Below are positions 1,502 to 33,321 of a stretch of 39,032 nucleotides of DNA, in pieces (position 1 is the stretch's first letter; each line of letters starts with the position of its first letter). The DNA is from Candidatus Saccharimonadia bacterium (GTDB taxonomy: Bacteria > Patescibacteriota > Saccharimonadia > Saccharimonadales > CALFBO01). Below the pieces are notes generated by a model, which saw only the letters and a list, made by a program, of their open reading frames with translations, had not been told where the DNA came from and did no database searches. Made by a program: the position numbers and the translations under genes. The DNA lies in the NCBI GenBank assembly GCA_937951635.1, contig CALFBO010000056.1, forward strand, positions 1-39,032, written 5' to 3'.

Positions 1502-2037
1502 GTTGTTCAGGGGCTTTAAGTTCAAAACAATAACTAGTATTTCTTTGTTTTTGGAGTGCCTGACGAGGCGCCGTGCTTTGTTTTTCAATGGAGCGTACTT
1601 AACAGCTAAAGAAAAACAAAACGTATCTTTTTAAACATGCCTGTATGGCCATAAAACTCGTTCTCTTCTTCGACATATCTAAAGATATGACTTAAGTCGA
1701 GTAACGAGTCTTCTGTCTCACCCAGATCACGATCAAAAAATGACACGTTTTGTATTCCTTTGGCTATAACAAGTACGTGTAATGAAAACTAAGTGCGGGA
1801 ACGAAGAAACCTGGCTGGAGTCCGGCTGTGCCGGTGTAGGCCTGATTGTTCAGGGGCTTTAAGTTCAAAACAATAACTAGTATTTCTTTGTTTTTGGAGT
1901 GCCTGACGAGGCGCCGTGCTTTGTTTTTCAATGGAGCGTACTAGCAAGTACGTGTAATGAAAACTAAGTGCGGGAACGAAGAAACCTGGCTGGAGTCCGG
2001 CTGTGCCGGTGTAGGCCTGGTTGTTCAGGGGCTTTAA
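1502..2037 (+). repeat. tandem array of a 175-nt structured non-coding module (X family): XA 1502-1844 (interrupted), XB 1845-2019, partial third head 2020-2037
   Basis: Direct comparison: 1502-1599 equals 1845-1942 except for the first base, and 1771-1844 equals 1946-2019 exactly. The 18-nt unit head recurs at 2020-2037. Nested helices are present. Wobble pairs are T:G/G:T on the + strand. Confidence 0.9.
1600..1770 (+). other. 171-nt insertion in the apical hairpin loop of X copy XA; carries a Y-family structured module (about 1616-1753)
   Basis: XB reads CGTACT-AGC-AAGTACG. XA reads CGTACT-[171 nt]-AAGTACG. The insert folds on itself: ACAAAACGT 1616-1624 / ACGTTTTGT 1745-1753, CTCGTT 1657-1662 / AACGAG 1703-1708, and hairpin CATATCT-AAA-GATATG at 1674-1689. 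Confidence 0.8.
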
Positions 2038-2050
2038 AAACAAAAAAATA

Positions 2051-2125
2051 TGGTATCCCCGGCTGGAATCGAACCAACATCTAATCCTTAGGAGGGACTC
2101 GTTCTATCCGTTGAACTACAGGGAC
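2051..2125 (-). tRNA. tRNA-Arg (anticodon CCU)
   Basis: The reverse complement folds as a 75-nt cloverleaf. Acceptor GUCCCUG/CGGGGAU (G1:U72 wobble), D arm GUUC-AACGGAUA-GAAC, anticodon arm AGUCC-CUCCUAA-GGAUU (anticodon CCU), 4-nt variable loop, T arm GUUGG-UUCGAUU-CCAGC, discriminator A, encoded CCA. Confidence 0.9.
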
Positions 2126-2180: not shown

Positions 2181-2801
2181 TTACTTGTCTTGGTACCAAT
2201 CTTTGGTATAAACAACTCTTGAATGAGCTGTCTCAAAACTCAATAGTTCGTGCTCTTCAAACCAAATCATCAATTCCCTATTGGCGTTTTCCGAACTATC
2301 CGAGCAATGAATAATGTTTCTAACAGCCCAACCACCACGATCGGCAAGCTCATAGGAGTCTACTGAGTAGTCAAAACCTATAGTTCCTGGCTGCGACGAT
2401 CTAGGACTGGTCTGTCCTCGCATTTTTCTGGCCGATTCAACCACATGCGCTCCTTCGAGAGCGATGGCGACTACTGGGCCTGCGGACAAGTTTTCCATGT
2501 TTATTTCTCGTATTTTTACGCCCATTTCTCTTGCAGTTAGACTTAACTTTACGCCCTGGTCTTCGTAATTCTTCAGTGTGCGCCCACCAGTATCAAGATA
2601 CCATTCTTCGTCTTCGGCATAATGTCGGCCAGTCTGTTCTTTTGTAGGCCACACCATTTTTAATCCAATGATTTTAAGATTTTTTCGTTCAAACCTTTGA
2701 ATAATCTCGCCCACTAAATGCCTTGAAACAGCATCGGGCTTCAATAAAACCAAAGTTCGCTCAGATTTAATACTCTTCAGTTCTTGTTCGTCTGGCCTCA
2801 T
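2181..2801 (-). CDS. ndk: nucleoside-diphosphate kinase (long form with insertions)
   Basis: ERTLVLLKPDAVSRHLVGEIIQRFERKNLKIIGLKM at the N-terminus and the active-site block NIIHCSDS. The ATG lies 3 nt after the uppP stop. Confidence 0.85.
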   Translation of the reverse strand: MRPDEQELKSIKSERTLVLLKPDAVSRHLVGEIIQRFERKNLKIIGLKMVWPTKEQTGRHYAEDEEWYLDTGGRTLKNYEDQGVKLSLTAREMGVKIREINMENLSAGPVVAIALEGAHVVESARKMRGQTSPRSSQPGTIGFDYSVDSYELADRGGWAVRNIIHCSDSSENANRELMIWFEEHELLSFETAHSRVVYTKDWYQDK

Positions 2802-2804
2802 CGG

Positions 2805-3620
2805 TTATGCTCCTGCTGCTATGAATAATAATATTGCCAACCCTAGCCTATACCAGCCAAAAGCTGTTAGACCATTTGTCTTCACAAACCTTAGCAAAAA
2901 GTCGAGAGCAAACCAACCACAAAAGAACGCAACAACAACACCAACAATGGCCATGTGGCTATTTTCTACAAGCGCAGCCCTACTTTCGGCGTCGATAATT
3001 TGCTTTAAGGCTGCACCAGCTATAATTGGAATACCTGCCAAAAATGAATACTCGGCCGCAACAGTGTTATCGTAACCTCTAGCTCTTGCCGCAAGCATGG
3101 TTATACCTGAACGTGACGTACCCGGGACCAGTGCCAATACTTGAAGCAAGCCAATAACTGCCGCATCCAGCCCACTCAAGCTATTAACGCCACTTGCATC
3201 ATTGCTATTCTTTGCTTTTTTAACCTGGCTCCTTGGCTTGTAAGTAAAAAGCTTGTCCGAAAAAATCATTACAATGCCCACAGCTGCAAGCATGAATGCA
3301 ACGACCCTTACTGACCGTGCCGACTCGGTAATCTGGTCTACAAACAAAAATCCAACAGTTGCTGCAGGTATTGTTGTTATAACAACGTTATATATGAGTG
3401 ATTTATTTTTGGTGGGTTTAGACAAAATCGAGATAATCTTATCTTTAAAATAAACAACTACCGCAAGCAAGGTGCCAAAATGCAGGGCAACGTCGAACGC
3501 AAGACCACCCTTTAAGCCCCACCATTCGCGCAAAGCCAATAAGTGGCCCGAACTAGAAACTGGAATAAACTCGGTAATCGCTTGAACAATGGCGAGTATA
3601 ACGACTTCAATAATACCCAT
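2805..3620 (-). CDS. uppP: undecaprenyl-diphosphate phosphatase (BacA/UppP)
   Basis: Polytopic membrane protein carrying both signature motifs, EFIPVSSSGHL and PGTSRSGITM. Confidence 0.9.
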   Translation of the reverse strand: MGIIEVVILAIVQAITEFIPVSSSGHLLALREWWGLKGGLAFDVALHFGTLLAVVVYFKDKIISILSKPTKNKSLIYNVVITTIPAATVGFLFVDQITESARSVRVVAFMLAAVGIVMIFSDKLFTYKPRSQVKKAKNSNDASGVNSLSGLDAAVIGLLQVLALVPGTSRSGITMLAARARGYDNTVAAEYSFLAGIPIIAGAALKQIIDAESRAALVENSHMAIVGVVVAFFCGWFALDFLLRFVKTNGLTAFGWYRLGLAILLFIAAGA

Positions 3621-3622
3621 AA

Positions 3623-4078
3623 TTAAATACTTCCCACACTTGGCATGTTACTCAAATAGTCGCCACCGGCGCGAACCTCGACAATCCCAGCATCCCAACT
3701 CCAACGACAAACCGTCTTGTCGCCAATCATAAGCCTGACCTCTTCAGGCAGGGAATTCTCTACTCGCCACATATATGGCTCTGGGTTTTCAGTCAGTAAT
3801 TTAGACACTATCTGTTTATTTTTAGGTGTAAACACTGCCCTAAACTCGGCATCAAACCCCAGGTAATACAACGGGTTGGTTCTTTTGGTCTGCGTGACCC
3901 TTTCTAGCTTGGTTGCTAAAAGTACTTTATCCACGCCCTTTCTAAACGACTTAAAATAGAAAGAGTCACACAAATCTAATAAATCAACCAGCTCGCCAAG
4001 CACACCCCTCTCGGGCAAACCTTCATAAAACACAACCCTAAATTCACTGTCCTTTGCCATGAGCCAATTATACAGCAC
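3623..4078 (-). CDS. hypothetical protein
   Basis: 151-aa ORF abutting uppP. The track start is GTG; an ATG at 4060 (MAKDSEFRVVFYE...) is the more likely start. No motif recognised. Confidence 0.5.
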   Translation of the reverse strand: MLYNWLMAKDSEFRVVFYEGLPERGVLGELVDLLDLCDSFYFKSFRKGVDKVLLATKLERVTQTKRTNPLYYLGFDAEFRAVFTPKNKQIVSKLLTENPEPYMWRVENSLPEEVRLMIGDKTVCRWSWDAGIVEVRAGGDYLSNMPSVGSI

Positions 4079-5271: not shown

Positions 5272-6402
5272 CTATCTTGTACAGCTACTGCCAGGTAAGC
5301 CCAAAAAGTCACTAGACTGGTCGGTTATAGCAAAGTTTTTACATATGCTACCCGAAGTGGTTATAGACGCATCTGGTATTAAGGAAGGTGGCGCCAACTC
5401 CATCGTAGCCTTAATTCGTCTATACACGTCGCCAGATCTGGCAGTAATGTCTATTTGAGCCTGTCCGCCATTAAAGTTTTTATTGTTGTCGTTATTATCA
5501 AATGGCGTGACCCTAACTTGAGTTGGCTGGTACAAATTACTTATTTGTAGATACTTATACCTACTTTGACCACCTAGCTGCCGAAGGTTTAGCTCGCACA
5601 CATAGTCGCCTATGGGCGTATCGGGATCACAACGCGCAGGTGCTATTTCACCATTGGCCTCCACATTTGCACCAAATGCCCTATATTGTATTCCACCAAA
5701 TCCTCGGGCAGGATTTGCATAAAGCTTATAGCTTTCGAGGTCGGATGAGTCAAAATTGCTAAGTCTTGGACGAGCATACAAAGATATATCCAGCATTGCC
5801 GGGTAATTGCGGTTCTCAACCCAGGTAGGAACATTTAAAAGGGACTCGTCGAGTCTGCTGCGCAACCTAATTGGGCGATCTAACTCACCGTCACCACCTA
5901 CAGAAGACGTGCCATTAACATGCCATTCAATTTTAACTTCGTTTATACCGACAGAGGCATCGAGACTGTTAACGGCGTCGAGCGGCACTTTAACAGTCTT
6001 ATTCGCTTCATTTAAATTAAAGATGTAAGCATCGGGTTTAACATCTATGATCATACAGGTAATCTCGATGTCATAGCGATCGTTTGAAGAAAGTACGGGG
6101 TCAAAACCCTGTGGCATTTTGCAGGTGTCTTTATTGAGCTGGTCTATAGTCATCGCGCCACGTTGGACTTCACGAATAGCCCGCTTTGCCTCTTCTAGGC
6201 CCGATTCAGTGCCGTAAAATGCGCGTGACGACAAATCGGCATCAGAAGTTTGCCGGCTTTCGATTACAGAAAGCCTTATGTAGCTTATTGTTATAACAAG
6301 CAAAATTATGCTTATAAATATGACTGTAAGCATTGCAGCAGCACCATCTTGATTTAACTGTCGTCGCCGCTTGAAGCTATTTGTAAAAAACTTGATCATC
6401 AT
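5272..6402 (-). CDS. PilX-N-like pilus assembly / minor pilin-associated protein
   Basis: N-terminus RRRQLNQDGAAAMLTVIFISIILLVITISYIRLSVIESRQTSDADLSSRAFYGTESGLEEAKRAI resembles the PilX N-terminal domain. It is the last gene of the minor-pilin run, with a 1-nt overlap with the upstream gene. Confidence 0.55.
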   Translation of the reverse strand: MMIKFFTNSFKRRRQLNQDGAAAMLTVIFISIILLVITISYIRLSVIESRQTSDADLSSRAFYGTESGLEEAKRAIREVQRGAMTIDQLNKDTCKMPQGFDPVLSSNDRYDIEITCMIIDVKPDAYIFNLNEANKTVKVPLDAVNSLDASVGINEVKIEWHVNGTSSVGGDGELDRPIRLRSRLDESLLNVPTWVENRNYPAMLDISLYARPRLSNFDSSDLESYKLYANPARGFGGIQYRAFGANVEANGEIAPARCDPDTPIGDYVCELNLRQLGGQSRYKYLQISNLYQPTQVRVTPFDNNDNNKNFNGGQAQIDITARSGDVYRRIKATMELAPPSLIPDASITTSGSICKNFAITDQSSDFLGLPGSSCTR

Positions 6403-9863: not shown

Positions 9864-10343
9864 CTAACCTTCTGCACAGTAAGTTCCGCCACCCTCTAGC
9901 ACGACGGCCACTGCAAAAGATCTAGTAGATGTACTGGACGCATCTATCCAGCCATCCGCACAACTTGCTGCAAATTTATAAAATATCGGTTCTTTGTCGC
10001 CGCTCTTAAATTTTACGGCTGCTTTTTCGGGGAGGGCAGCTCTATGTATGTAATAATCTTGCACAATGTCAGAACCTGCATAGCCGCCAGTGAGAACTTG
10101 TTCTTCTAATTGTTTGCCATTAGCTGGGGCCTCGCCCCCGCTATTCGTCTTGTAGCTCAAAGTAGCGGCAACCATTCTGCCAACAACCGAGCGTCTAGCC
10201 TCGTCACGCTCAGACTTTTGCAAAGACGGCAATGCCAAGAAGACTGCCAAGAATATGAACCCCGCTATGGCCAAAACTAAGACCACCTCGATGATAGTGA
10301 ATCCTTGTTTGTTTGAGTTTATTTTCACTTCAATCTTTTTCAT
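9864..10343 (-). CDS. type IV pilin (PilA-like), paralog 1
   Basis: MKKIEVKINSNKQG|FTIIEVVLVLAIAGFIFLAVFLALPSLQKS is a class III signal with E+5. A C-terminal Cys pair (SCADGW...GGGTYCAEG) fits a pilin D-region disulfide. Confidence 0.85.
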   Translation of the reverse strand: MKKIEVKINSNKQGFTIIEVVLVLAIAGFIFLAVFLALPSLQKSERDEARRSVVGRMVAATLSYKTNSGGEAPANGKQLEEQVLTGGYAGSDIVQDYYIHRAALPEKAAVKFKSGDKEPIFYKFAASCADGWIDASSTSTRSFAVAVVLEGGGTYCAEG

Positions 10344-10670: not shown

Positions 10671-11156
10671 CTAGCCTTCTGCGCAGTAAGTTCCACCACC
10701 CTCTAGGATGACAGCTACTGCAAATGTTCTTGAAGAACCACCGCTGGAATCAATCCAACCGCTAGTACAGTTTGCGTTTTTTGCATAGTATACAGCTTCT
10801 AGGTCACCACTAAGGTTGCCCCCAAAGGCACCGGCTGCAGCAGCGTTCGCAGGTACTGCACTCGTCCACATGTAGTACTTAGTTGGGAAGTCATCTTCCA
10901 CATAATTAGCATCTACGACGTTAGTTTGTACAACGCCCGCGTCATTTGGTACGTCGCCATTACTGTTAGTAATGTACGATGTAACGCCTGCTACGAGTCG
11001 TCCAACGTCTGAACGCCGCTCAGTATCTCGTTGTGACTTCTGCAGTTGAGGCAGCGCCAAGAAGACTACTAAGAAAATTAGACCAGCAATAGCCAAGACC
11101 AAGACAACCTCGATAATGGTGAAGCCGCTCTGTCGATTTTTAACTAGCTTGTTCAT
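10671..11156 (-). CDS. type IV pilin (PilA-like), paralog 2
   Basis: MNKLVKNRQSG|FTIIEVVLVLAIAGLIFLVVFLALPQLQKS. The C-terminus NCTSGW...FAVAVILEGGGTYCAEG is nearly identical to that of paralog 1. Confidence 0.85.
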   Translation of the reverse strand: MNKLVKNRQSGFTIIEVVLVLAIAGLIFLVVFLALPQLQKSQRDTERRSDVGRLVAGVTSYITNSNGDVPNDAGVVQTNVVDANYVEDDFPTKYYMWTSAVPANAAAAGAFGGNLSGDLEAVYYAKNANCTSGWIDSSGGSSRTFAVAVILEGGGTYCAEG

Positions 11157-11331
11157 ACTTTTATCTCTTTCTACCTTTCGTTTTACAACTTTAATAAGGC
11201 TTATGTTTATATAGTGAAATTGTACTGACCTAAGGCAATAAAAGCAAGCATTTATAGGTAATTATACCGGTAATGCTTAAACACTTTCCTTTATGGGACT
11301 AAGGACCTACTCTACAAAAGGCTCTAACTAC

Positions 11332-11845
11332 TTTTGGAGTTGCTGCAATTCAAAACACCTTTTCACACCATGAAGATGATTTTCCAAGAAACATTCTTAA
11401 ATTCCCCAAATTCTCAGTCCGGACTTCGCCGGGTGTAGGATCTAGAGCTAAAGCTATTAAAAGTTTGGCTCTGCCGGTGGAAGTCTTAGCTAGTCCAGAA
11501 GGTTTAAAAAAGGAAATTAATGAGTGGCTAGGCCCCTTAGGCTACTTTTCGGTCTGTCTGACGAGGAGCAAAAACTAGCCCGCAGTGGAGCGTACTACTG
11601 TACGTGTAATGAGGACTAGTTTTTAGTGACGAAGACAGCTAGGCTGAAGCTGGCTTCGCTGACCAGGGAGACTGCTATTCAAAAGAGTTGAAAAGAATGA
11701 GTTCTGAGCTGATTTTCAGAATATTTGATAAGGCCCTAGTGCTTGTTTTCTAGCGGAGTGTACTTAAACAGTACATGGAGTGAAAATAAGCGCTGGCAAC
11801 GCAGAAGAGCTAACCCTGCGAGCCTGGTTTCGCCAAGCGGAGGGG
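11332..11845 (+). repeat. array of three diverged X-family modules: X0 degenerate 11332-11440, X3 11551-11668, X4 11725-11845
   Basis: Blocks shared with XB: TGAYRAGG (11559-11566, 11726-11733); GGAG plus hairpin CGTAC-TACT-GTACG / TGTACT-TAAAC-AGTACA; TGKARTGA; ACGMAGA. The long helix is kept by different sequences: X3 CAAAAACTAG 11569-11578 / CTAGTTTTTAG 11616-11626, X4 CTAGTGCTTGTTTT / AAAATAAGCGCTGG. X0 keeps TTTTGGAGTTGCTG, CAAGAAAC and the tail AGTCCGGACTTCGCCGGGTGTAGG (11416-11439). Confidence 0.6.
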
Positions 11846-11887
11846 TTGTCTCTGGTTCAAATGTTTTGAAAACAGTTCAAGTTCAGA

Positions 11888-13090
11888 TCAGAAGGACTGG
11901 CCTACTAGGCCGTAAATAGGTATTAATATCGCTCCAACCATCATCCCAGCAACCCCAGCCAAGAACACCATAAGTATTGGCTCAATTGCAGTAGATAGCG
12001 CCTTTATTTCGTTATCTAATTCTTTCTCATAAAAACTAGCTACTTTACCCATCATGGCATCGATTGACCCCGACTGCTCACCAATACTTAACATTTGTGG
12101 CACAAGAGGAAGAAAGTTTGGATCACCCTCTAGGGTTGACGAAAGAGTCTTGCCGCCCTTAACTTTTTGCGATGCATGAACCAGCGACTGCTCTATGTGT
12201 ACGTTGTCTACAGCCCTAGACGTAATATCCATCATCTCCAACATTGGAACTCCCGAAGCCATTAATGTCTGACCAGTACGGGCAAACCTAGCCATAAATA
12301 GCTTCATGAACATTCTGCCAAACAAAGGAGCTTTCATTTTGAGTCTGTCTACGAAGTGTTTACCAGAATACGTATACTTGGCCCAGCGTCGCATAAACCA
12401 AATCCCTGCTCCACTAACTATTATGATCAACCACCAAAATTTCTGAATTACTCTTGCCACGAACAATAGGATTTTAGTCAAAATTGGCAGATCTTTACCT
12501 AGATCTTCATAGAGTTGCTCGACCTGGGGCAAAACAACCACCAGCATAAACACGATGACCATGGCAATAACAAACATAACAATAGCAGGATAGACCATGG
12601 CGCCTTTTACTTTTGAGTTTATCTCGGCGTCTTTTTCTTGCTGGTCGGCAATCCTTGTGAGCGCTTCGTCCAGAGTACCCGATGCCTCGCCCGCCCCAAC
12701 AAGGTTTACATATACATCGTTAAATATCTTTGGATGCTTTCCCAGCGAGCTAGACAGGCTAGTTCCAGCCTCCACACTAACAATAACGTCGTTTATGACA
12801 CCTGCAAGGTGTTTGTTTGCCGTCTGCGTACCAACTGTTCTTAACGACTGCGTGAGGGGCAACCCGGCATTTATCAATGTAGAAAGTTGCCTAGAAAAAA
12901 GAACCTTGTCCTTACTACCTACGTGCTCTCGTCTAAACGAAAACCCTTCGCCCTTTTTCTTGATGTCTATTGGAACCAAGCCCTGCTCTTTAATTAGCTT
13001 GGCAGCCACCATCTCATTATCGGCCTGAACTTCGGCTTTTAAAAGCTGTCCTGTTGCTGGATCCTTTGCTTCGTATTCAAAAACTAGCAT
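11888..13090 (-). CDS. pilC: type IV pilus platform protein PilC (GspF family)
   Basis: 400 aa with a duplicated T2SS-F architecture: cytoplasmic domain, TM, cytoplasmic domain, TMs. It sits 3 nt downstream of pilT. Confidence 0.9.
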   Translation of the reverse strand: MLVFEYEAKDPATGQLLKAEVQADNEMVAAKLIKEQGLVPIDIKKKGEGFSFRREHVGSKDKVLFSRQLSTLINAGLPLTQSLRTVGTQTANKHLAGVINDVIVSVEAGTSLSSSLGKHPKIFNDVYVNLVGAGEASGTLDEALTRIADQQEKDAEINSKVKGAMVYPAIVMFVIAMVIVFMLVVVLPQVEQLYEDLGKDLPILTKILLFVARVIQKFWWLIIIVSGAGIWFMRRWAKYTYSGKHFVDRLKMKAPLFGRMFMKLFMARFARTGQTLMASGVPMLEMMDITSRAVDNVHIEQSLVHASQKVKGGKTLSSTLEGDPNFLPLVPQMLSIGEQSGSIDAMMGKVASFYEKELDNEIKALSTAIEPILMVFLAGVAGMMVGAILIPIYGLVGQSF

Positions 13091-13093
13091 ATT

Positions 13094-14161
13094 TTAATTC
13101 CTCATTAGCCTGTCTAGCTCTTCAATATCTATGGCGTAATTACGAGCCTCGTCATAAGTAATGGTGCCAGCATGAATTAGGTTTACTAGTGTTTTATCCA
13201 TAGACTGCATACCATGGTCGGCTCCAGTTTGAATTACGGCATCTAGCTGATGAGACTTCCCTTCTCGAATAATATTTCGAACTGCAGGTGTAGCTACTAG
13301 TATTTCTGCTGCCACTACTCGCCCACCGCCTATAGAAGGGATCAGTCGCTGCGACACTATGGCCTGGAGTATATTAGAAAGCTGGGCTCTAATCTGGGGC
13401 TGCTGGTGAGGCGGGAATACGTCTATCATACGATCTATCGACTGTGCTGCCGAGTTGGTGTGCAGGGTTGCAAAAACCAAGTGACCAGTCTCTGCAATCG
13501 TAATAGCTGCTGCAATTGTTTCAAGGTCACGCATTTCGCCAATAAGCACCACGTCTGGATCTTGACGCAAGCTTGAACGCAGCGCCGCCGAAAAAGAAAA
13601 TGTATCATAGTGGACTTCTCTTTGAACAACCACAGAATTTTTAGATTTGTGAGTAAACTCAATTGGATCTTCAATGGTTATTATGTGCTCTGCCCTATCG
13701 GTATTGACCTTGTCGACTATCGCTGCTAGCGAGGTAGACTTACCAGACCCAGTTGGACCCGTAACCAAAACTAGGCCCCTGGGTAGTTCGGCAAAGCCTT
13801 TTGTTACTTCGGGCATGCCGAGCTCTTCGATGGTCTTTATTTCATTAGGAATTAGCCTTAACGCCGCAGCCAAGTTGCCTCTTTCATGGTATGCATTAAC
13901 ACGAAATCGCCCCAAATCACCAAACGCAAACGAGAAATCGAATTCTTTGTCTTTTAACAAAATCTGTTTTTGATCGTCGTCTAAGATGGCAAATACCAAA
14001 GACTCGACATTCGCTTCGGTAAGAACTGGCGCCCCTGCAACAGGTTTAAGTGATCCATCAATACGCAACATCGGCGCCAAGCCAACCTGCAAGTGCAAAT
14101 CAGACGCCCGTTTTGTTATCACGTCTTCCAAAAGTAGTTCTATTCTAAGTTCTTGTGCCAT
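13094..14161 (-). CDS. pilT: twitching-motility retraction ATPase PilT
   Basis: 355 aa. Walker A GPTGSGKSTS, Asp box and HLVFATLHTNSAAQSIDRMIDVF, with the typical PilT size and no N-terminal GspE-N extension. Confidence 0.9.
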   Translation of the reverse strand: MAQELRIELLLEDVITKRASDLHLQVGLAPMLRIDGSLKPVAGAPVLTEANVESLVFAILDDDQKQILLKDKEFDFSFAFGDLGRFRVNAYHERGNLAAALRLIPNEIKTIEELGMPEVTKGFAELPRGLVLVTGPTGSGKSTSLAAIVDKVNTDRAEHIITIEDPIEFTHKSKNSVVVQREVHYDTFSFSAALRSSLRQDPDVVLIGEMRDLETIAAAITIAETGHLVFATLHTNSAAQSIDRMIDVFPPHQQPQIRAQLSNILQAIVSQRLIPSIGGGRVVAAEILVATPAVRNIIREGKSHQLDAVIQTGADHGMQSMDKTLVNLIHAGTITYDEARNYAIDIEELDRLMRN

Positions 14162-14181
14162 TATTCACCCTCTCTCAAGCA

Positions 14182-16011
14182 TTACGCACTATCTATCGCT
14201 GCAACACGGTTTACTTCTTCTAGAGTAGTCATACCGTTTATGGCCTTAAAGTACCCGTCTTCTCGCATAGTAATCGTACCTTGCGCCTGGGCAGCTTTTT
14301 GAATTTCGGAACTCGTAGCTCTCTTTATAATTAGCTCTTCTATATGCTCTGTAACGTCGAGCACTTCGTAAAGTCCGAGTCTTCCTTTATAGCCCCCAGG
14401 TGTAGACTTGGTGTCCTTACCCTTGAATAAAGTATAAGCGTTTTGGGTACCTAAGGGCAAGCTTTCATATCCAAGATCATTGGAGACCTTTTTCTGGCTG
14501 GCAGTGTCTTTTGGCAAAAGGTGCCCAACTGTCTCGTGAATGGCCTCTGTTTCTACCTGTGTTGACTGATAGGCTTCTTTCTTGTCGGTTATTCTTCGCA
14601 CCAGACGCTGACCTATTACAGTGTTTACGGTCGAAGCAATGAGGAATGGTTCTATACCCATATCCAGAAGTCTTGGCAGCACACCTGCAGCCGAATTGGT
14701 GTGAAGCGTAGAAAACACTAAATGCCCAGTAAGGGCAGCCTGCACAGCCAGTGTTGCCGTTTCGGCGTCTCTAATTTCACCCACCATAACTACATCTGGG
14801 TCTTGACGCAAAATTGATCGTAGTCCACCAGCAAACGTCAAACCAACATCGGCATTAACTTGTATCTGGTTCACGCCTTCCATTTTGTATTCGACAGGAT
14901 CTTCCAGGGTTACGATATTAATGCTTTCGTCTTTAATTTCTGAAAGCAGCGCATACATTGAAGTAGACTTTCCAGAACCAGTAGGCCCACTAGTAAGAAC
15001 CATGCCATTGGGTTTCTTTATTCCTTTTCTGATAGCTTCTAGAGCGTGGCCCACATATCCCATGTCTTCAAGGTGTAAGCTCGTACCGCTTTTATCTAAA
15101 ATTCTTATCACTACTTGCTCGCCCCACACAGTTGGAGATATCGATATACGCAGGTCAATGTCTCGACCTGCAACACTAACAGCAAATTGACCGTCCTGCG
15201 GAATGCGGTGCTCATCTATCTTTAAGTTGGATAAAATCTTTATTCGGGACACCAATGCTGGTTCGGTAGCTTTGGGTAGTCGCATGATTTCACGTAAGAC
15301 TCCGTCGACACGAGTTCTAATCTTCAACTCACTTTTTACCGGTTCCATATGTATGTCAGAAGCTCGGTTTGTAACTGCGTACTCCAAGACCGCGCTAAGC
15401 GCCTTGGAAATTGGTGAGTCTTCAACAATTGTCTTAATTCTTTTTTCTTTTTCTTTTTCGACCTTGTCGTCGCCTGATACAAGACTATTCGGATCGAAAT
15501 TCAAAGACGAACCTGCACTGGAGCCGCCGACTCCAGCTAAAGCTTCCGACAAGTCACTACCCTCAAGGTGTGTGCTGTATTGCTTGATAACGTGTCGTAT
15601 CCCGCCCTCGGAAGCCATATATACACTTATGGGGCGTCCGATCTTTTTGGATAAGAAGTCTGCAGCCTGCACATTGTCGGCGTCAAGCATTGCAACAACT
15701 AGGCGACCCTTCATTTCACCTAGAGGAACTGCCATGTAGCGTTCTGCCAGCCCCTTTGACAGTAATTTAAGAATTTCGACGGGTATGAGAGCATTGGATA
15801 AGTCTACGTATGGAAGCTTAAGGACTTTGGCCGTAATACGGGTTAGGTCCTCATTTGTAATAACTTCTTCACCCAATAAATAGGCAAATAAAGGTTGACT
15901 ATCTGCCCGAGCTTTGTCTTCAAATTCCTGAAGCTTATCTTCAAGTATTAGACCCTCTTCTACGAGGAGCCCTTTGGCTAGTTTTTGATTTTCCGCTGAT
16001 AGAACACCCAT
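14182..16011 (-). CDS. pilB: type IV pilus assembly ATPase PilB (GspE family)
   Basis: 609 aa. N-terminal GspE-N-like domain (LPYVDLSNALIPVEILKLLSKGLAERYMAVPL), Walker A GPTGSGKSTS, and GHLVFSTLHTNSAAG. Confidence 0.9.
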   Translation of the reverse strand: MGVLSAENQKLAKGLLVEEGLILEDKLQEFEDKARADSQPLFAYLLGEEVITNEDLTRITAKVLKLPYVDLSNALIPVEILKLLSKGLAERYMAVPLGEMKGRLVVAMLDADNVQAADFLSKKIGRPISVYMASEGGIRHVIKQYSTHLEGSDLSEALAGVGGSSAGSSLNFDPNSLVSGDDKVEKEKEKRIKTIVEDSPISKALSAVLEYAVTNRASDIHMEPVKSELKIRTRVDGVLREIMRLPKATEPALVSRIKILSNLKIDEHRIPQDGQFAVSVAGRDIDLRISISPTVWGEQVVIRILDKSGTSLHLEDMGYVGHALEAIRKGIKKPNGMVLTSGPTGSGKSTSMYALLSEIKDESINIVTLEDPVEYKMEGVNQIQVNADVGLTFAGGLRSILRQDPDVVMVGEIRDAETATLAVQAALTGHLVFSTLHTNSAAGVLPRLLDMGIEPFLIASTVNTVIGQRLVRRITDKKEAYQSTQVETEAIHETVGHLLPKDTASQKKVSNDLGYESLPLGTQNAYTLFKGKDTKSTPGGYKGRLGLYEVLDVTEHIEELIIKRATSSEIQKAAQAQGTITMREDGYFKAINGMTTLEEVNRVAAIDSA

Positions 16012-30230: not shown

Positions 30231-30366
30231 CTCACTGCCTTCGTTATTAAGTAGGAAGTGACTCGTCCCCTGGTTTTGCTTACGCTCAAACACCCCCTGG
30301 CCTTCGGCAGACGGGGCGCCAACTCCTAGAGCAAAGCTCTGGGGAGCGAGACCTATTTCTTATTGG
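30231..30366 (-). repeat. Z element copy 2 (inverted relative to copy 1), 3' of the RodZ-like gene and upstream of the rpsF promoter
   Basis: See Z1. The reverse complement of this interval aligns with 26673-26817 over essentially its whole length. Confidence 0.7.
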
Positions 30367-30446
30367 CTGCCTGGGTAGCTAGTGTGTCGCACAAGAGCAT
30401 GTTAATATACAAAAACACATATACAGCCAAAGTAAAACAAAAATCG

Positions 30447-31155: not shown

Positions 31156-33321
31156 CTAGTCGCTTACTTCTGGTGGCTCTTCAAGCGGGTCATCATCAAA
31201 ATCGTCCATGCTACTCACAAGTACTTCTCGTGGCCTTGAGCCATCTGCTGGGCCAACCACCCCTTGCTCTTCTAAGGATTCTATCAATCTTGCCGCTCTA
31301 GCGTACCCAACCCTTAAGCGTCGCTGCAACAATGATGCGGATGCCTTGTTGCTTTCAATAACTACTCTTACTGCATCGTGATACAAACTATCATCGGCGT
31401 CAAAATCTGCGCCAGAACTAACTACCCCACCTTTGGATATTTGTACTGCCTGAGCAACTACGTCGTCGTCATAAGAAGGCGCCCGTTCCATTTTTACAAA
31501 GTCTACAACCTTCATCACTTCATTGTCACCAATAAATACACCCTGGATTCTGCGTGGCTTGGACAATTCAGGGGTTTGCATGAGCATGTCGCCTTTGCCC
31601 AACAACTTTTCGGCTCCTGACCCATCTAGAATCGTCCTAGAATCCACCTGGCTGGCAACTGTAAAGGCTATTCTTGCTGGGATATTAGCCTTGATCAAGC
31701 CGGTTATAACGTCGACAGATGGTCTCTGAGTTGCCAATACTAAATGTATACCTACTGCCCTGGCCTTTTGCGCCAACCGAACAATCAAGGCCTCTACGTC
31801 CCTAGCGGCAAGCATCATCAAGTCGGCGAGCTCATCAATAACCACCACAATATAAGGCATACCTTCTTCTTTTTTGAGTCGGTTATATTCCAAAATGTTA
31901 CGCTTACCTACTTCGGCTAAAGCGCTATAACGTCTCTCCATTTCGGCTACCGCCCACTTTAAAGCAGAAATACATTTTTCGGGATCTACTATGACCGGAG
32001 TTAGCAAGTGAGGTATGTCATTGTAAGGCGACAACTCTACTTGCTTTGGGTCAACTAAAATCAACTTTAAATCTGATGGCGAATTTCTATACAGCAGACT
32101 ACTCAAGAATGTATTTATCATCACCGACTTACCAGACCCAGTAGCGCCAGCGATTAATAAGTGGGGCATTTTATCTAGCTCGCCAACTACCGCCTGTCCG
32201 GCAATATCCTTGCCTACGGCAAAGGTTAGCGGGCTAGACGCACCGCGCCACTGTGGAGACTCCAGCACAGAACGCAAACCTACACCTGCTGCTTTAATGT
32301 TGGGCACCTCTATTCCAACAGCCCGTTTACCCGGTATTGGTGCTTCCATCCGAATCGCCGTTGCAGCAAGGTTGAGGGCCAGGTTGTTTTCTAGAGCTGT
32401 GATCTTGGTTAACCGAACCCCAGAAGGTGGCTTTAAAGTGTACTGGGTAACTCTTGGGCCAATATTTGCGCCTTGCATTTCTACATTAATCTTAAAGTCA
32501 GACAACGTTTCTTCAATTATAGCTGCGTTCGTCTCAACGTCACCAGCATCTGCCTTATCCTGCTTATTGCTTAGCAAATCAAGCCCAGGCAACTTCCACT
32601 CTGGGTCGCTAGATGTCGTTAATGCTTCGTGATTCTCGTCTACAGTAGCCTTTTGCGCACTATTCTTTAAACTAACTCGCTGTCTTTGTACGGGGACGCC
32701 TTCGTTTAGCTTAAACCCACTGCCCTTGCTGCTTGTGTTGATAGCTTTTGAATCGGTGTCATCTTTATCTTTTTTAAAATTACCCAGCCACGAAAATAAC
32801 CCCAAAGATTTCCTTGGTGAAACGCCAAACAAATAATGAAAAGAGGCCAAACCCAGTCCAAATAAAATTGCACCACCACCAATTTTGCCAAACAAGTCTG
32901 TCACAAGCGAATTTGCCAGCCCACCAAAAAATCCACCACCATCGCCCTCGTCTGCAACCAACTTTTTAGCCGCTTCACTAGATTCATCTACAAAAAGATG
33001 CAAGAAACCACTAATAGCCAAAATGAATAAAAGTGCACCAAAAAGCTTTAATAGCGGCATTTTTTTGCCATCGTTTGTTTGCTTAATATAAGCTAGATAC
33101 ACCAACAATGGCGCCAGTAAATAGCCGAACCAGCCAAACAGCTGCCTAGACCAATCAAAAAAACTGCTGGATGCACCGGCATCAATACCCAGGCTACCCA
33201 GTAAGACTAGTAATGCCAGAATAAGCAGACCAATTACTGCTGCCTGGGGCCAAAATCCTGCTGGTAAATTAGAAGTCTTTGCTTTGGATTTTCTTGAAGA
33301 TTTTTTCTTTCGTTTTGCCAT
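31156..33321 (-). CDS. ftsK: DNA translocase FtsK/SpoIIIE
   Basis: N-terminal TM helices, Walker A GATGSGKS, VVVIDELADLMM, and a C-terminal gamma winged-helix (ASASLLQRRLRVGYARAARLIESLEEQGVVGP). Confidence 0.9.
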   Translation of the reverse strand: MAKRKKKSSRKSKAKTSNLPAGFWPQAAVIGLLILALLVLLGSLGIDAGASSSFFDWSRQLFGWFGYLLAPLLVYLAYIKQTNDGKKMPLLKLFGALLFILAISGFLHLFVDESSEAAKKLVADEGDGGGFFGGLANSLVTDLFGKIGGGAILFGLGLASFHYLFGVSPRKSLGLFSWLGNFKKDKDDTDSKAINTSSKGSGFKLNEGVPVQRQRVSLKNSAQKATVDENHEALTTSSDPEWKLPGLDLLSNKQDKADAGDVETNAAIIEETLSDFKINVEMQGANIGPRVTQYTLKPPSGVRLTKITALENNLALNLAATAIRMEAPIPGKRAVGIEVPNIKAAGVGLRSVLESPQWRGASSPLTFAVGKDIAGQAVVGELDKMPHLLIAGATGSGKSVMINTFLSSLLYRNSPSDLKLILVDPKQVELSPYNDIPHLLTPVIVDPEKCISALKWAVAEMERRYSALAEVGKRNILEYNRLKKEEGMPYIVVVIDELADLMMLAARDVEALIVRLAQKARAVGIHLVLATQRPSVDVITGLIKANIPARIAFTVASQVDSRTILDGSGAEKLLGKGDMLMQTPELSKPRRIQGVFIGDNEVMKVVDFVKMERAPSYDDDVVAQAVQISKGGVVSSGADFDADDSLYHDAVRVVIESNKASASLLQRRLRVGYARAARLIESLEEQGVVGPADGSRPREVLVSSMDDFDDDPLEEPPEVSD

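Follow-up and report, generated by a model that had tools for sequence, protein, structure and literature searches.

The window analysed here, 39,032 nt of a Candidatus Saccharimonadia genome (contig CALFBO010000056.1, read as its plus strand), is a Saccharimonadales type IV pilus locus with genes nearly all on the minus strand, and copies of a structured non-coding unit, here called X, lie between pilC and the first pilin gene and again beside a tRNA-Arg gene. With a probability of roughly 0.6, the X region is read as an inserted, tandemly duplicated structured repeat of about 125–160 nt that is a remote member of an ERIC-like superfamily and acts as an ERIC-like non-autonomous element. The fold of the unit is under selection on one strand, and the two loci record insertion, tandem duplication and decay of some copies. 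Four intact units and one degenerate unit, all on one strand, are found at the two loci in these 39 kb of genome (Table 1). The preliminary description of this DNA had proposed a diverged tandem array of a structured plus-strand module antisense to the pilus genes, and the analysis bears this out. ERIC repeats have served as genotyping markers since about 1991 and are regarded as an enterobacterial peculiarity, with no known function or way of moving.

Architecture of the X unit and selection on its fold

Three matches to the core pattern GGAGYGTAC-N-GTACRTGKARTGA lie in the window, against an expectation of zero from shuffles. In minimum free energy (MFE) folds a closing helix, P1, closes around two hairpins, H1 and H2, so that XB, X3 and X4 each form a three-way junction of 125–160 nt, the greater length of XB (152 nt) and X4 (160 nt) being due to the extra hairpin H2. 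The unit boundaries drawn earlier were too narrow, as both P1 and H2 belong to the unit. P1 is followed by a base loop that is purine-rich, asymmetric and conserved (as read from the sequences, 5' R-A-G-G opposite 3' A-C-G-N-A-G); its G:C pair is invariant in 13 of the 13 distinct copies with letters at that pair, and a 3-nt bulge GNA plus a G at position 1b is present in the eight copies read in detail. H1 then consists of P2, whose roughly 18 rungs are free in sequence, an apex loop that is small and rich in G and A (GGAG ... U(G)GA), and P3, with the stem YGUAC/GUACR, conserved within the GUAC group, and a loop of free sequence. H2 is a hairpin added at the base loop in the Saccharimonadales copies, which gives the three-way junction. 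The GGA motifs of the X units are located in internal loops, not in hairpin loops, where titrating sRNAs of the CsrB/RsmZ type carry many of them for a CsrA/RsmA partner; the likeness to protein-titrating sRNAs suggested earlier is speculative. The block TGAYRAGG, first described as conserved and unpaired, is indeed conserved, but its CUG pairs inside P1; in X4, UUG:CAA stands where the other copies show CUG:CAG, a compensated change, and the two strands of X4 P1 are paired at 15 of 15 positions.

The H1 alignment was curated by hand, is gap-free and consists of XB, X3, X4 and a copy, W, from a metagenome-assembled genome (MAG) labelled Wallbacteria (L001); all rows were verified against the real sequences. 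In H1, 90% of cells are paired, as against 68% in shuffles (none of 500 reach the observed value) and 27–48% in slid controls, and 15 of the 26 pairs show compensatory change on both sides. The closing helix P1 is 85% paired, with compensatory change in 10 of 16 pairs (0/500 shuffles). The length of P2 is constant, at 18 rungs, in all four curated copies. These values uphold the earlier claim of base-pair covariation as opposed to mere sequence repetition. Conserved loops beside helices that are unrelated in sequence mark selection acting on a folded single strand.

The folded strand is the plus strand, opposite to pilC and the pilin genes, as had been proposed: the helices contain 25 G:U cells versus four A.C cells, and the plus-strand folds of the window units are 5–21 kcal/mol better than those of the minus strand. 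A further eight cells are G.A or A.G (sheared-pair signatures).

By eye, the base loop resembles a kink-turn or, in the three-way-junction copies, a k-junction. Kink-turns, of which Kt-7 (GGCGAAGAACC / GGGAGCC) is an example, are defined by C=G at -1b:-1n, a 3-nt bulge and tandem G.A/A.G pairs. In the X base loop a C, the GNA bulge and G-A face R-A-G, the G:C pair is the invariant one and every copy could form a G.A pair; as in k-junctions, the third helix of the three-way-junction copies emerges on the non-bulged strand. The second sheared pair (2b.2n), however, is A.G only in XB and X3 (two of the eight copies read) and elsewhere A.A, C.A, U.G or C:G, and an alternative register is equally possible in copies lacking H2. 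Because this second pair is not conserved, the kink-turn stays a resemblance suggested by the sequences.

Relatives in phage contigs and a probable link to ERIC/IRU repeats

In a comparison of the window with Rfam 15, only the tRNA passed the gathering threshold, and at E<=10 only noise was returned at the two window loci, the L001 copy and three phage contigs. This check, proposed with the preliminary description, thus gave no family match at either level; the label 'unclassified' holds with regard to Rfam families, but relatives do exist, namely rods in phages and, remotely, ERIC/IRU. A riboswitch reading was rejected, the X units having no Rfam match.

With the strict core pattern, one true homologue, copy W of L001, was found among 185,579 species genomes, and no true homologue was found in metagenome contigs; five further matches from these two sets (L002–L006) were chance matches after screening. 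Loose patterns on viral contigs gave chance matches only; blastn with the array against phage and plasmid collections gave nothing; blastn with the phage rods against the phage collection gave noise only; and a protein search with the spurious open reading frame (ORF) across XB, aimed at miscalled ORFs elsewhere, gave nothing. Three IMG/VR contigs (L149–L151) emerged with a pattern that retained the apex and the 3' block; all of them carry a long closing helix and the 5' block RYRAGG, which the pattern did not demand. Further patterns led to at least 10 distinct copies on IMG/VR phage contigs.

Copy W is a rod without H2, with helices unrelated in sequence to those of the X units, and W and the tested phage rods are 119–126 nt long. 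The contigs bearing the other copies have 38–67% GC. In an alignment of 10 distinct phage copies, a set independent of the first, which was fitted to the model and so favours structure somewhat, 83% of cells are paired, 17 of 26 pairs are compensatory, 0/500 shuffles reach this level and slid controls give 24–45%. Between P2 and P3, the copies from phages and E. coli have a tandem G.A/A.G motif as their apex loop; the apex loop of the Saccharimonadales and MAG copies contains five extra bases (GUAAU or GGAGU).

The rods occur in T7-like, P2-like, P22-coat and lambda-portal (HK97-fold) phages, in contexts listed in Table 1. In most phage contexts the module strand is antisense to the flanking genes, and both orientations occur; by our count, about 10 of 13 copies, including that of E. 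coli, are antisense to their neighbours. In W, the tested rod-type phage copies and the E. coli ERIC, the module strand is 10–27 kcal/mol more stable than its complement. This strong strand asymmetry does not follow the orientation of neighbouring genes and suggests that a single-stranded form is under selection. The two paralogous rods of L149 are very similar across P1a and the base loop (UUUUGUUUGCUGG.AAGGAAAACAAG), and on this contig the rod is preceded by a perfect TATAAT, 14 nt upstream, and followed by a U-rich stretch. Two other features were seen on L151: a match to a group I intron below threshold (2530–3321; 38 bits, gathering score 50, E 2e-6), overlapping the start of the P22-type coat ORF, and a near-perfect hairpin of about 110 nt (5838–5946) directly beside the rod, with noise matches to plant and viral miRNA precursor families.

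Two covariance models were built: R1 from the window copies plus W, and R2 from phage copies only. Searched against 64 kb, R2 matched XB (49.2 bits, E 7e-9), X4 (48.8 bits, E 8e-9), W (43.3 bits) and X3 (40.5 bits, E 7e-7), and also the E. coli ERIC (29.6 bits, E 2e-4); nothing else was matched at E<=1, and these E-values are rough. Under R1, X3 scores 59 bits.

The connection with ERIC came through two phage copies. The module of the P2-like contig L175 matches chromosomal repeats of Salmonella and E. coli, and that of L170 is matched in every one of the 5426 complete E. coli genomes, with a median of 10 sites per genome and 76–83% identity, in unannotated intergenic DNA. Measured against the ERIC core (the ERIC1R and ERIC2 primer sequences, verified in the literature), mismatches number 3/22 and 3/22 in the E. 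coli K-12 copy between pepB and iscX, 3/22 and 2/22 in L170, and 8/22 and 6/22 in L175. The L170 and L175 copies grade into bona fide E. coli ERIC/IRU. The E. coli ERIC folds into P1, an AAGG/AACGCA loop, P2, the tandem-GA apex loop and P3; its two strands fold at -50.4 kcal/mol with seven G:U pairs and at -29.5 kcal/mol with one, and the module strand of the pepB–iscX copy is antisense to both genes.

ERIC/IRU (Sharples & Lloyd 1990; Hulton et al. 1991) are, like the rods, intergenic imperfect palindromes of about 120–127 nt. They share with the X units and phage rods the order of the fold and, in the E. coli copy, the strong strand asymmetry; both ERIC/IRU and X units are found by R2, a model trained on neither; and both are multi-copy, the X units at two loci in the 39 kb, and have no known function; phage copies, like ERIC, occur in either orientation relative to genes. 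Unlike ERIC, the X units have no recognisable core, a P3 stem YGUAC/GUACR instead of CUUAC/GUAAG (or CAUAG/CUAUG, the other P3 stem seen in ERIC), a 5-nt insert in the apex loop (GUAAU or GGAGU), the extra H2 three-way junction, a tandem arrangement, a Saccharimonadales host of the candidate phyla radiation (CPR) instead of an enterobacterium, and no TA flanks that could be seen. The X module is thus a variant within an ERIC-like superfamily, remotely related, and not an ERIC. E. coli ERICs are reported (Wilson & Sharp 2006) to show compensatory evolution and internal insertions at fixed sites, which would parallel H2 and the insert in XA described below.

If the link holds, one fold is common to a CPR bacterium, a second non-enterobacterial MAG and several phage types, in all of which the helices are free to covary and one strand is consistently preferred regardless of the orientation of adjacent genes. 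CPR bacteria and phages would then join the range of a repeat family that has been an enigma for 35 years, with covariation evidence that the fold itself is conserved and a real alignment for covariation analysis of ERIC-like elements. Phages would become plausible vectors, and the folded single strand as working form a testable hypothesis.

Insertion at the two loci and competing explanations

At eight related loci (PilC 63–76% identical) the pilC–pilin gap is only about 80–200 bp and lacks the array. When two of these relatives (L007, L008) were aligned to the window gap, they matched only its last ~100 bp, with the promoter and 5' untranslated region (5'UTR). As the relatives have a short gap with the promoter only, the array is a lineage-specific insertion and does not belong to the ancestral pilus operon. 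At the second locus, the gap between NDK, the tRNA and the gene for a bPH-domain protein is about 220–270 bp in three relatives versus 767 bp in the window. A 1.5-kb contig from another sequencing run and sample (L009) encodes an identical bPH-domain protein and breaks exactly at the start of the XA/XB array (L009 1–36). In this independent sample the end has the appearance of an assembly break caused by the repeat, and a break at that point argues that the array is real and not an artefact of one assembly.

XA and XB are 99% identical in both halves, which marks them as recent duplicates. XA has the same core blocks as XB, X3 and X4, but they are split by a 174-nt insert, which is bordered by TAAC on both sides and folds at -67.4 kcal/mol on the minus strand (z -8.9) versus -45.5 kcal/mol on the plus strand; no further copy was present among the sequences gathered in the analysis. 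It looks like a second, unrelated MITE (a miniature transposable element with inverted repeats) nested inside the first. Three copies, X0, X3 and X4, had been claimed for the pilC–pilin gap; X3 and X4 are intact, but X0 is a remnant. X0 retains a P1-like closing helix (GGAGUUGCUG / CAGAAGGUUU) and two H2-like hairpins, its H1 blocks are gone, and neither R1 nor R2 gives a match.

In one relative (L020, PilC 65% identical; 13876–14330, minus strand of the locus), the ~500 nt after a tRNA-Arg(CCT) hold two long hairpins whose apical stems contain GUAC. One of them, with P1 CCUG/CAGG and loops ACGAG/GAAAGA, is X-like by eye; neither covariance model matches them.

Under the reading as an ERIC-like element, the unit would spread, like ERIC, into intergenic DNA as a small non-autonomous element, with phages as likely vehicles. 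Its persistence would require one strand to keep the fold, either as a transcript or as a DNA intermediate, single-stranded in both cases, and the two conserved loops may be recognised by a trans-acting factor. Any effect on pilC and the pilin genes would be secondary, for instance through antisense RNA, through changed 3' ends of the mRNA or by insulating the pilin promoter. ERIC repeats are described as MITE-like, ~127 bp long and co-transcribed with their neighbours, with an effect on mRNA stability via RNase E in Yersinia; ERIC-type MITEs have terminal inverted repeats with TA target duplication, and the host range of ERIC is the Enterobacteriaceae (PMC3184786, host range in its Table 1).

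Several results weigh against this reading. With 10–12/22 mismatches to the ERIC core, XB, X3, X4, W and the remaining phage rods are at chance level, the mean of shuffles, and R1 does not score the E. coli ERIC; for these two reasons the link is remote and rests on the intermediates and on R2, with its rough E-values. The Wallbacteria label of L001 could not be confirmed, a 1955-aa protein having given no informative matches. No consistent terminal TA duplications or clear terminal inverted repeats were found at the rod ends, no transposase was found near the array among the scanned window proteins, and no plus-strand promoter or terminator is predicted for the array. Finally, the copies within the window genome, with their unrelated helices, are far more diverged than recent MITE copies usually are, and selfish spread explains this no better than long-lived functional RNA genes do.

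Such genes constitute the main rival, possible but on balance unlikely: the units would encode trans-acting small RNAs, serving as ribonucleoprotein scaffold or protein decoy and cut from a plus-strand precursor, with P1 protecting the ends. Their G/A-rich loops would bind a conserved protein, and the RNA would be a phage regulatory or anti-defence RNA, acquired and amplified in the Saccharibacterium. Loops conserved across very different genomes while helices vary freely, the constant 18 rungs of P2 in the four curated copies, the eight sheared-pair cells, a P1 that seals the ends, and a strand asymmetry independent of flanking genes, with about 10 of 13 copies antisense, speak for them. The TATAAT and U-rich stretch flanking the L149 rod also suit a transcribed gene, but consistent promoter or terminator signals are lacking in the window and in the other phage copies, and in phage operons the rod fills the entire intergenic gap. 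Degenerate X0 and insert-disrupted XA also count against such genes, and the search for a partner protein found none, the sole nearby lineage-specific gene being an orphan with an unusable structure model.

A broader variant, which we hold to be doubtful, unites ERIC and the rods in one ancient, widespread and largely phage-borne class of structured RNA, an independently transcribed RNA of ~125 nt with k-turn-like and tandem-GA loops that bind a conserved factor, the folded single strand being the working form. Such a class might have a role in phage–host conflict or in its own RNA-mediated propagation. If this were true, ERIC would be a functional RNA family and no longer 'junk MITE' DNA, and the Saccharibacterial three-way-junction arrays would be an amplified, domesticated branch.

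It is improbable that the array is a cis-acting element of the pilus operon, whether an antisense array controlling pilC and pilin or a terminator or processing structure in the sense mRNA. The position between pilC and a highly expressed pilin gene, with the array end 11 nt from the pilC stop codon, would suit such an element, as would the altered mRNA stability seen with the Yersinia ERIC (PMC3184786) and the sense orientation of the T7-like L150 rod after a capsid gene. The array, however, is absent at this position in all eight related loci examined, X units also occur beside tRNA-Arg and in unrelated phage contexts, and the folded strand is antisense to the operon, whose sense transcript would carry the weaker complement. 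An ancestral role of the X array in regulating the pilus genes is unlikely, and for the pilus locus the result argues against an ancestral regulatory RNA.

Two known identities were rejected as very improbable. The blocks CUGACGAGG and ACGAAGA resemble the two boxes of a hammerhead ribozyme (core CUGAYGAG ... CGAA), and the tandem units with three helices around a junction (P1, H1 and H2 as stems I, II and III) invite the comparison; yet P1 takes up C3, U4 and G5 of the otherwise unpaired hammerhead core in base pairs, compensated in X4 by UUG:CAA, position 15.1 holds a G in all copies where hammerheads have the A15.1-U16.1 pair, X4 reads GCA for GAA, W and the phage copies are rods without the third helix, and no Rfam hammerhead matches even at E<=10. 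TIGR-type (box C/D-like) stem-loop guide RNA arrays, known from CPR bacteria and phages, are built of structured units in tandem in which variable segments lie between short conserved motifs (Faure et al. 2025, PMC12045711). The X units share these habitats and are laid out in a similar way, an outer stem enclosing four motifs, with a variable segment inside the first and inside the second pair of motifs and a variable linker between the pairs, and weak Rfam noise matches to archaeal C/D sRNAs were seen. In contrast to TIGR arrays, no Nop-domain (Tas) gene is present among 30 scanned window proteins (ORFs of >=100 aa, up to position 33321), the two variable segments, of 18 nt, are mutually complementary and form a covarying helix instead of the two unpaired 8–12-nt spacers of a TIGR unit, the X unit is 3–4 times longer than a tigRNA unit, and the motifs differ, with no UG/CCA boxes.

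Other candidates were dropped for missing defining motifs, partner genes or Rfam matches: attC sites, IS200/IS605 ends, retron ncRNA, single-strand origins and promoters, and likewise 5S, SRP, 6S and Y RNA and T-box stem I. The repeat families Correia/CREE, RUP, BOX, RPE and REP/BIME are, like X, short, non-coding, hairpin-forming, intergenic and sometimes nested or clustered, and can alter the fate of neighbouring mRNA (PMC3184786); their copies within a genome are similar in sequence, whereas the X helices are unrelated and the loops conserved.

Coordinates and neighbouring observations

Table 1 Features of the window and contexts of the phage rods. Positions refer to the sequence named in the first column.
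Sequence	Feature	Positions	Strand	Remarks
Window	XA	1547-1866	+	99% identical to XB in both halves (repeat families D1, D2); P3 loop replaced by 174-nt insert
Window	Insert in XA P3 loop	1597-1770		174 nt, MITE-like; strand unassigned; ~20-bp terminal inverted repeats (AGCTAAAGAAAAACAAAACGT and partner)
Window	XB	1890-2041	+	Intact, 152 nt; ends 9 nt from tRNA-Arg(CCT) 3' end
Window	XB, 5' parts	P1a 1890-1905; ACGAGG 1906-1911; H1 to 1974	+	
Window	XB, core pattern	1933-1960	+	
Window	XB, 3' parts	AACGAAGA 1975-1982; H2 1983-2022; P1b 2026-2041	+	
Window	tRNA-Arg(CCT)	2051-2125	-	Convergent with XA and XB
Window	First pilin gene	10671-11156	-	
Window	pilC–pilin gap	11157-11887		No credible ORF; longest, 58-aa TTG ORF
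Window	Pilin promoter and 5'UTR	11157-11255	-	TTGCTT, 17 nt, TACAAT; conserved in relatives (part matched by L007, L008); marks edge of inserted DNA
Window	Lineage-specific inserted DNA	11256-11887		~630 bp
Window	X0	11331-11505	+	Degenerate unit or fused remains of two units; from folds and pairwise alignment to XB
Window	X0, H2-like hairpins	11410-11445; 11461-11486	+	
Window	X3	11550-11674	+	Intact, 125 nt; MFE fold a three-way junction
Window	X3, 5' parts	P1a 11550-11560; junction ACGAGG 11561-11566; H1 (P2, apex loop, P3) to 11627	+	
Window	X3, core pattern	11587-11612	+	
Window	X3, 3' parts	GACGAAGA 11628-11635; H2 11636-11661; P1b 11664-11674	+	
Window	X4	11713-11872	+	Intact, 160 nt; MFE fold a three-way junction
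Window	X4, 5' parts	P1a 11713-11727; junction AUAAGG 11728-11733; H1 to 11797	+	
Window	X4, core pattern	11755-11783	+	
Window	X4, 3' parts	AACGCAGA 11798-11805; H2 11806-11853; P1b 11858-11872	+	
Window	pilC	11888-13090	-	
L149	Rod			After protease-capsid fusion gene; positions of the L149 rods in next row
L149	Two paralogous rods	5925-6065; 9986-10098		In two structural-operon gaps, both antisense
L150	Rod			T7-like; after capsid-like gene, sense orientation
L151	Rod			One gene after P22-type coat gene
L168	Rod			Near DNA polymerase genes
L172	Rod			Between adaptor gene and large virion gene
L175	Rod			P2-like; between small terminase and head-completion gene

PilC relatives and gene order place the window in Saccharimonadales: the closest PilC homologues are 76% identical, and the named matches are Candidatus Saccharimonadales. 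The plus-strand GC skew is negative across the whole window, so that the minus strand is the leading strand. The pilC–pilin gap had been described as free of credible ORFs, which agrees with the longest ORF listed in Table 1; no small ORF inside the X units is conserved between copies.

A 151-aa ORF between bacA and a xerC/D-like integrase gene (3623–4078, minus strand) is absent from all syntenic relatives; among 1.8 billion representative proteins it has a single homologue, 38% identical. It gave no Pfam, PADLOC or PDB match, and its AlphaFold model (pLDDT 48) is unusable; as an orphan without a usable structure model, it was dropped as a candidate partner protein of the X module. Upstream of rpsF (minus strand), a GC-rich, structured-looking stretch at 30240–30400 lies inside a 398-bp gap, with no Rfam match there. 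The pilin paralogues at 9864–10343 and 10671–11156 share a 5' segment of ~106 bp that is 74% identical between them (repeat family D3).

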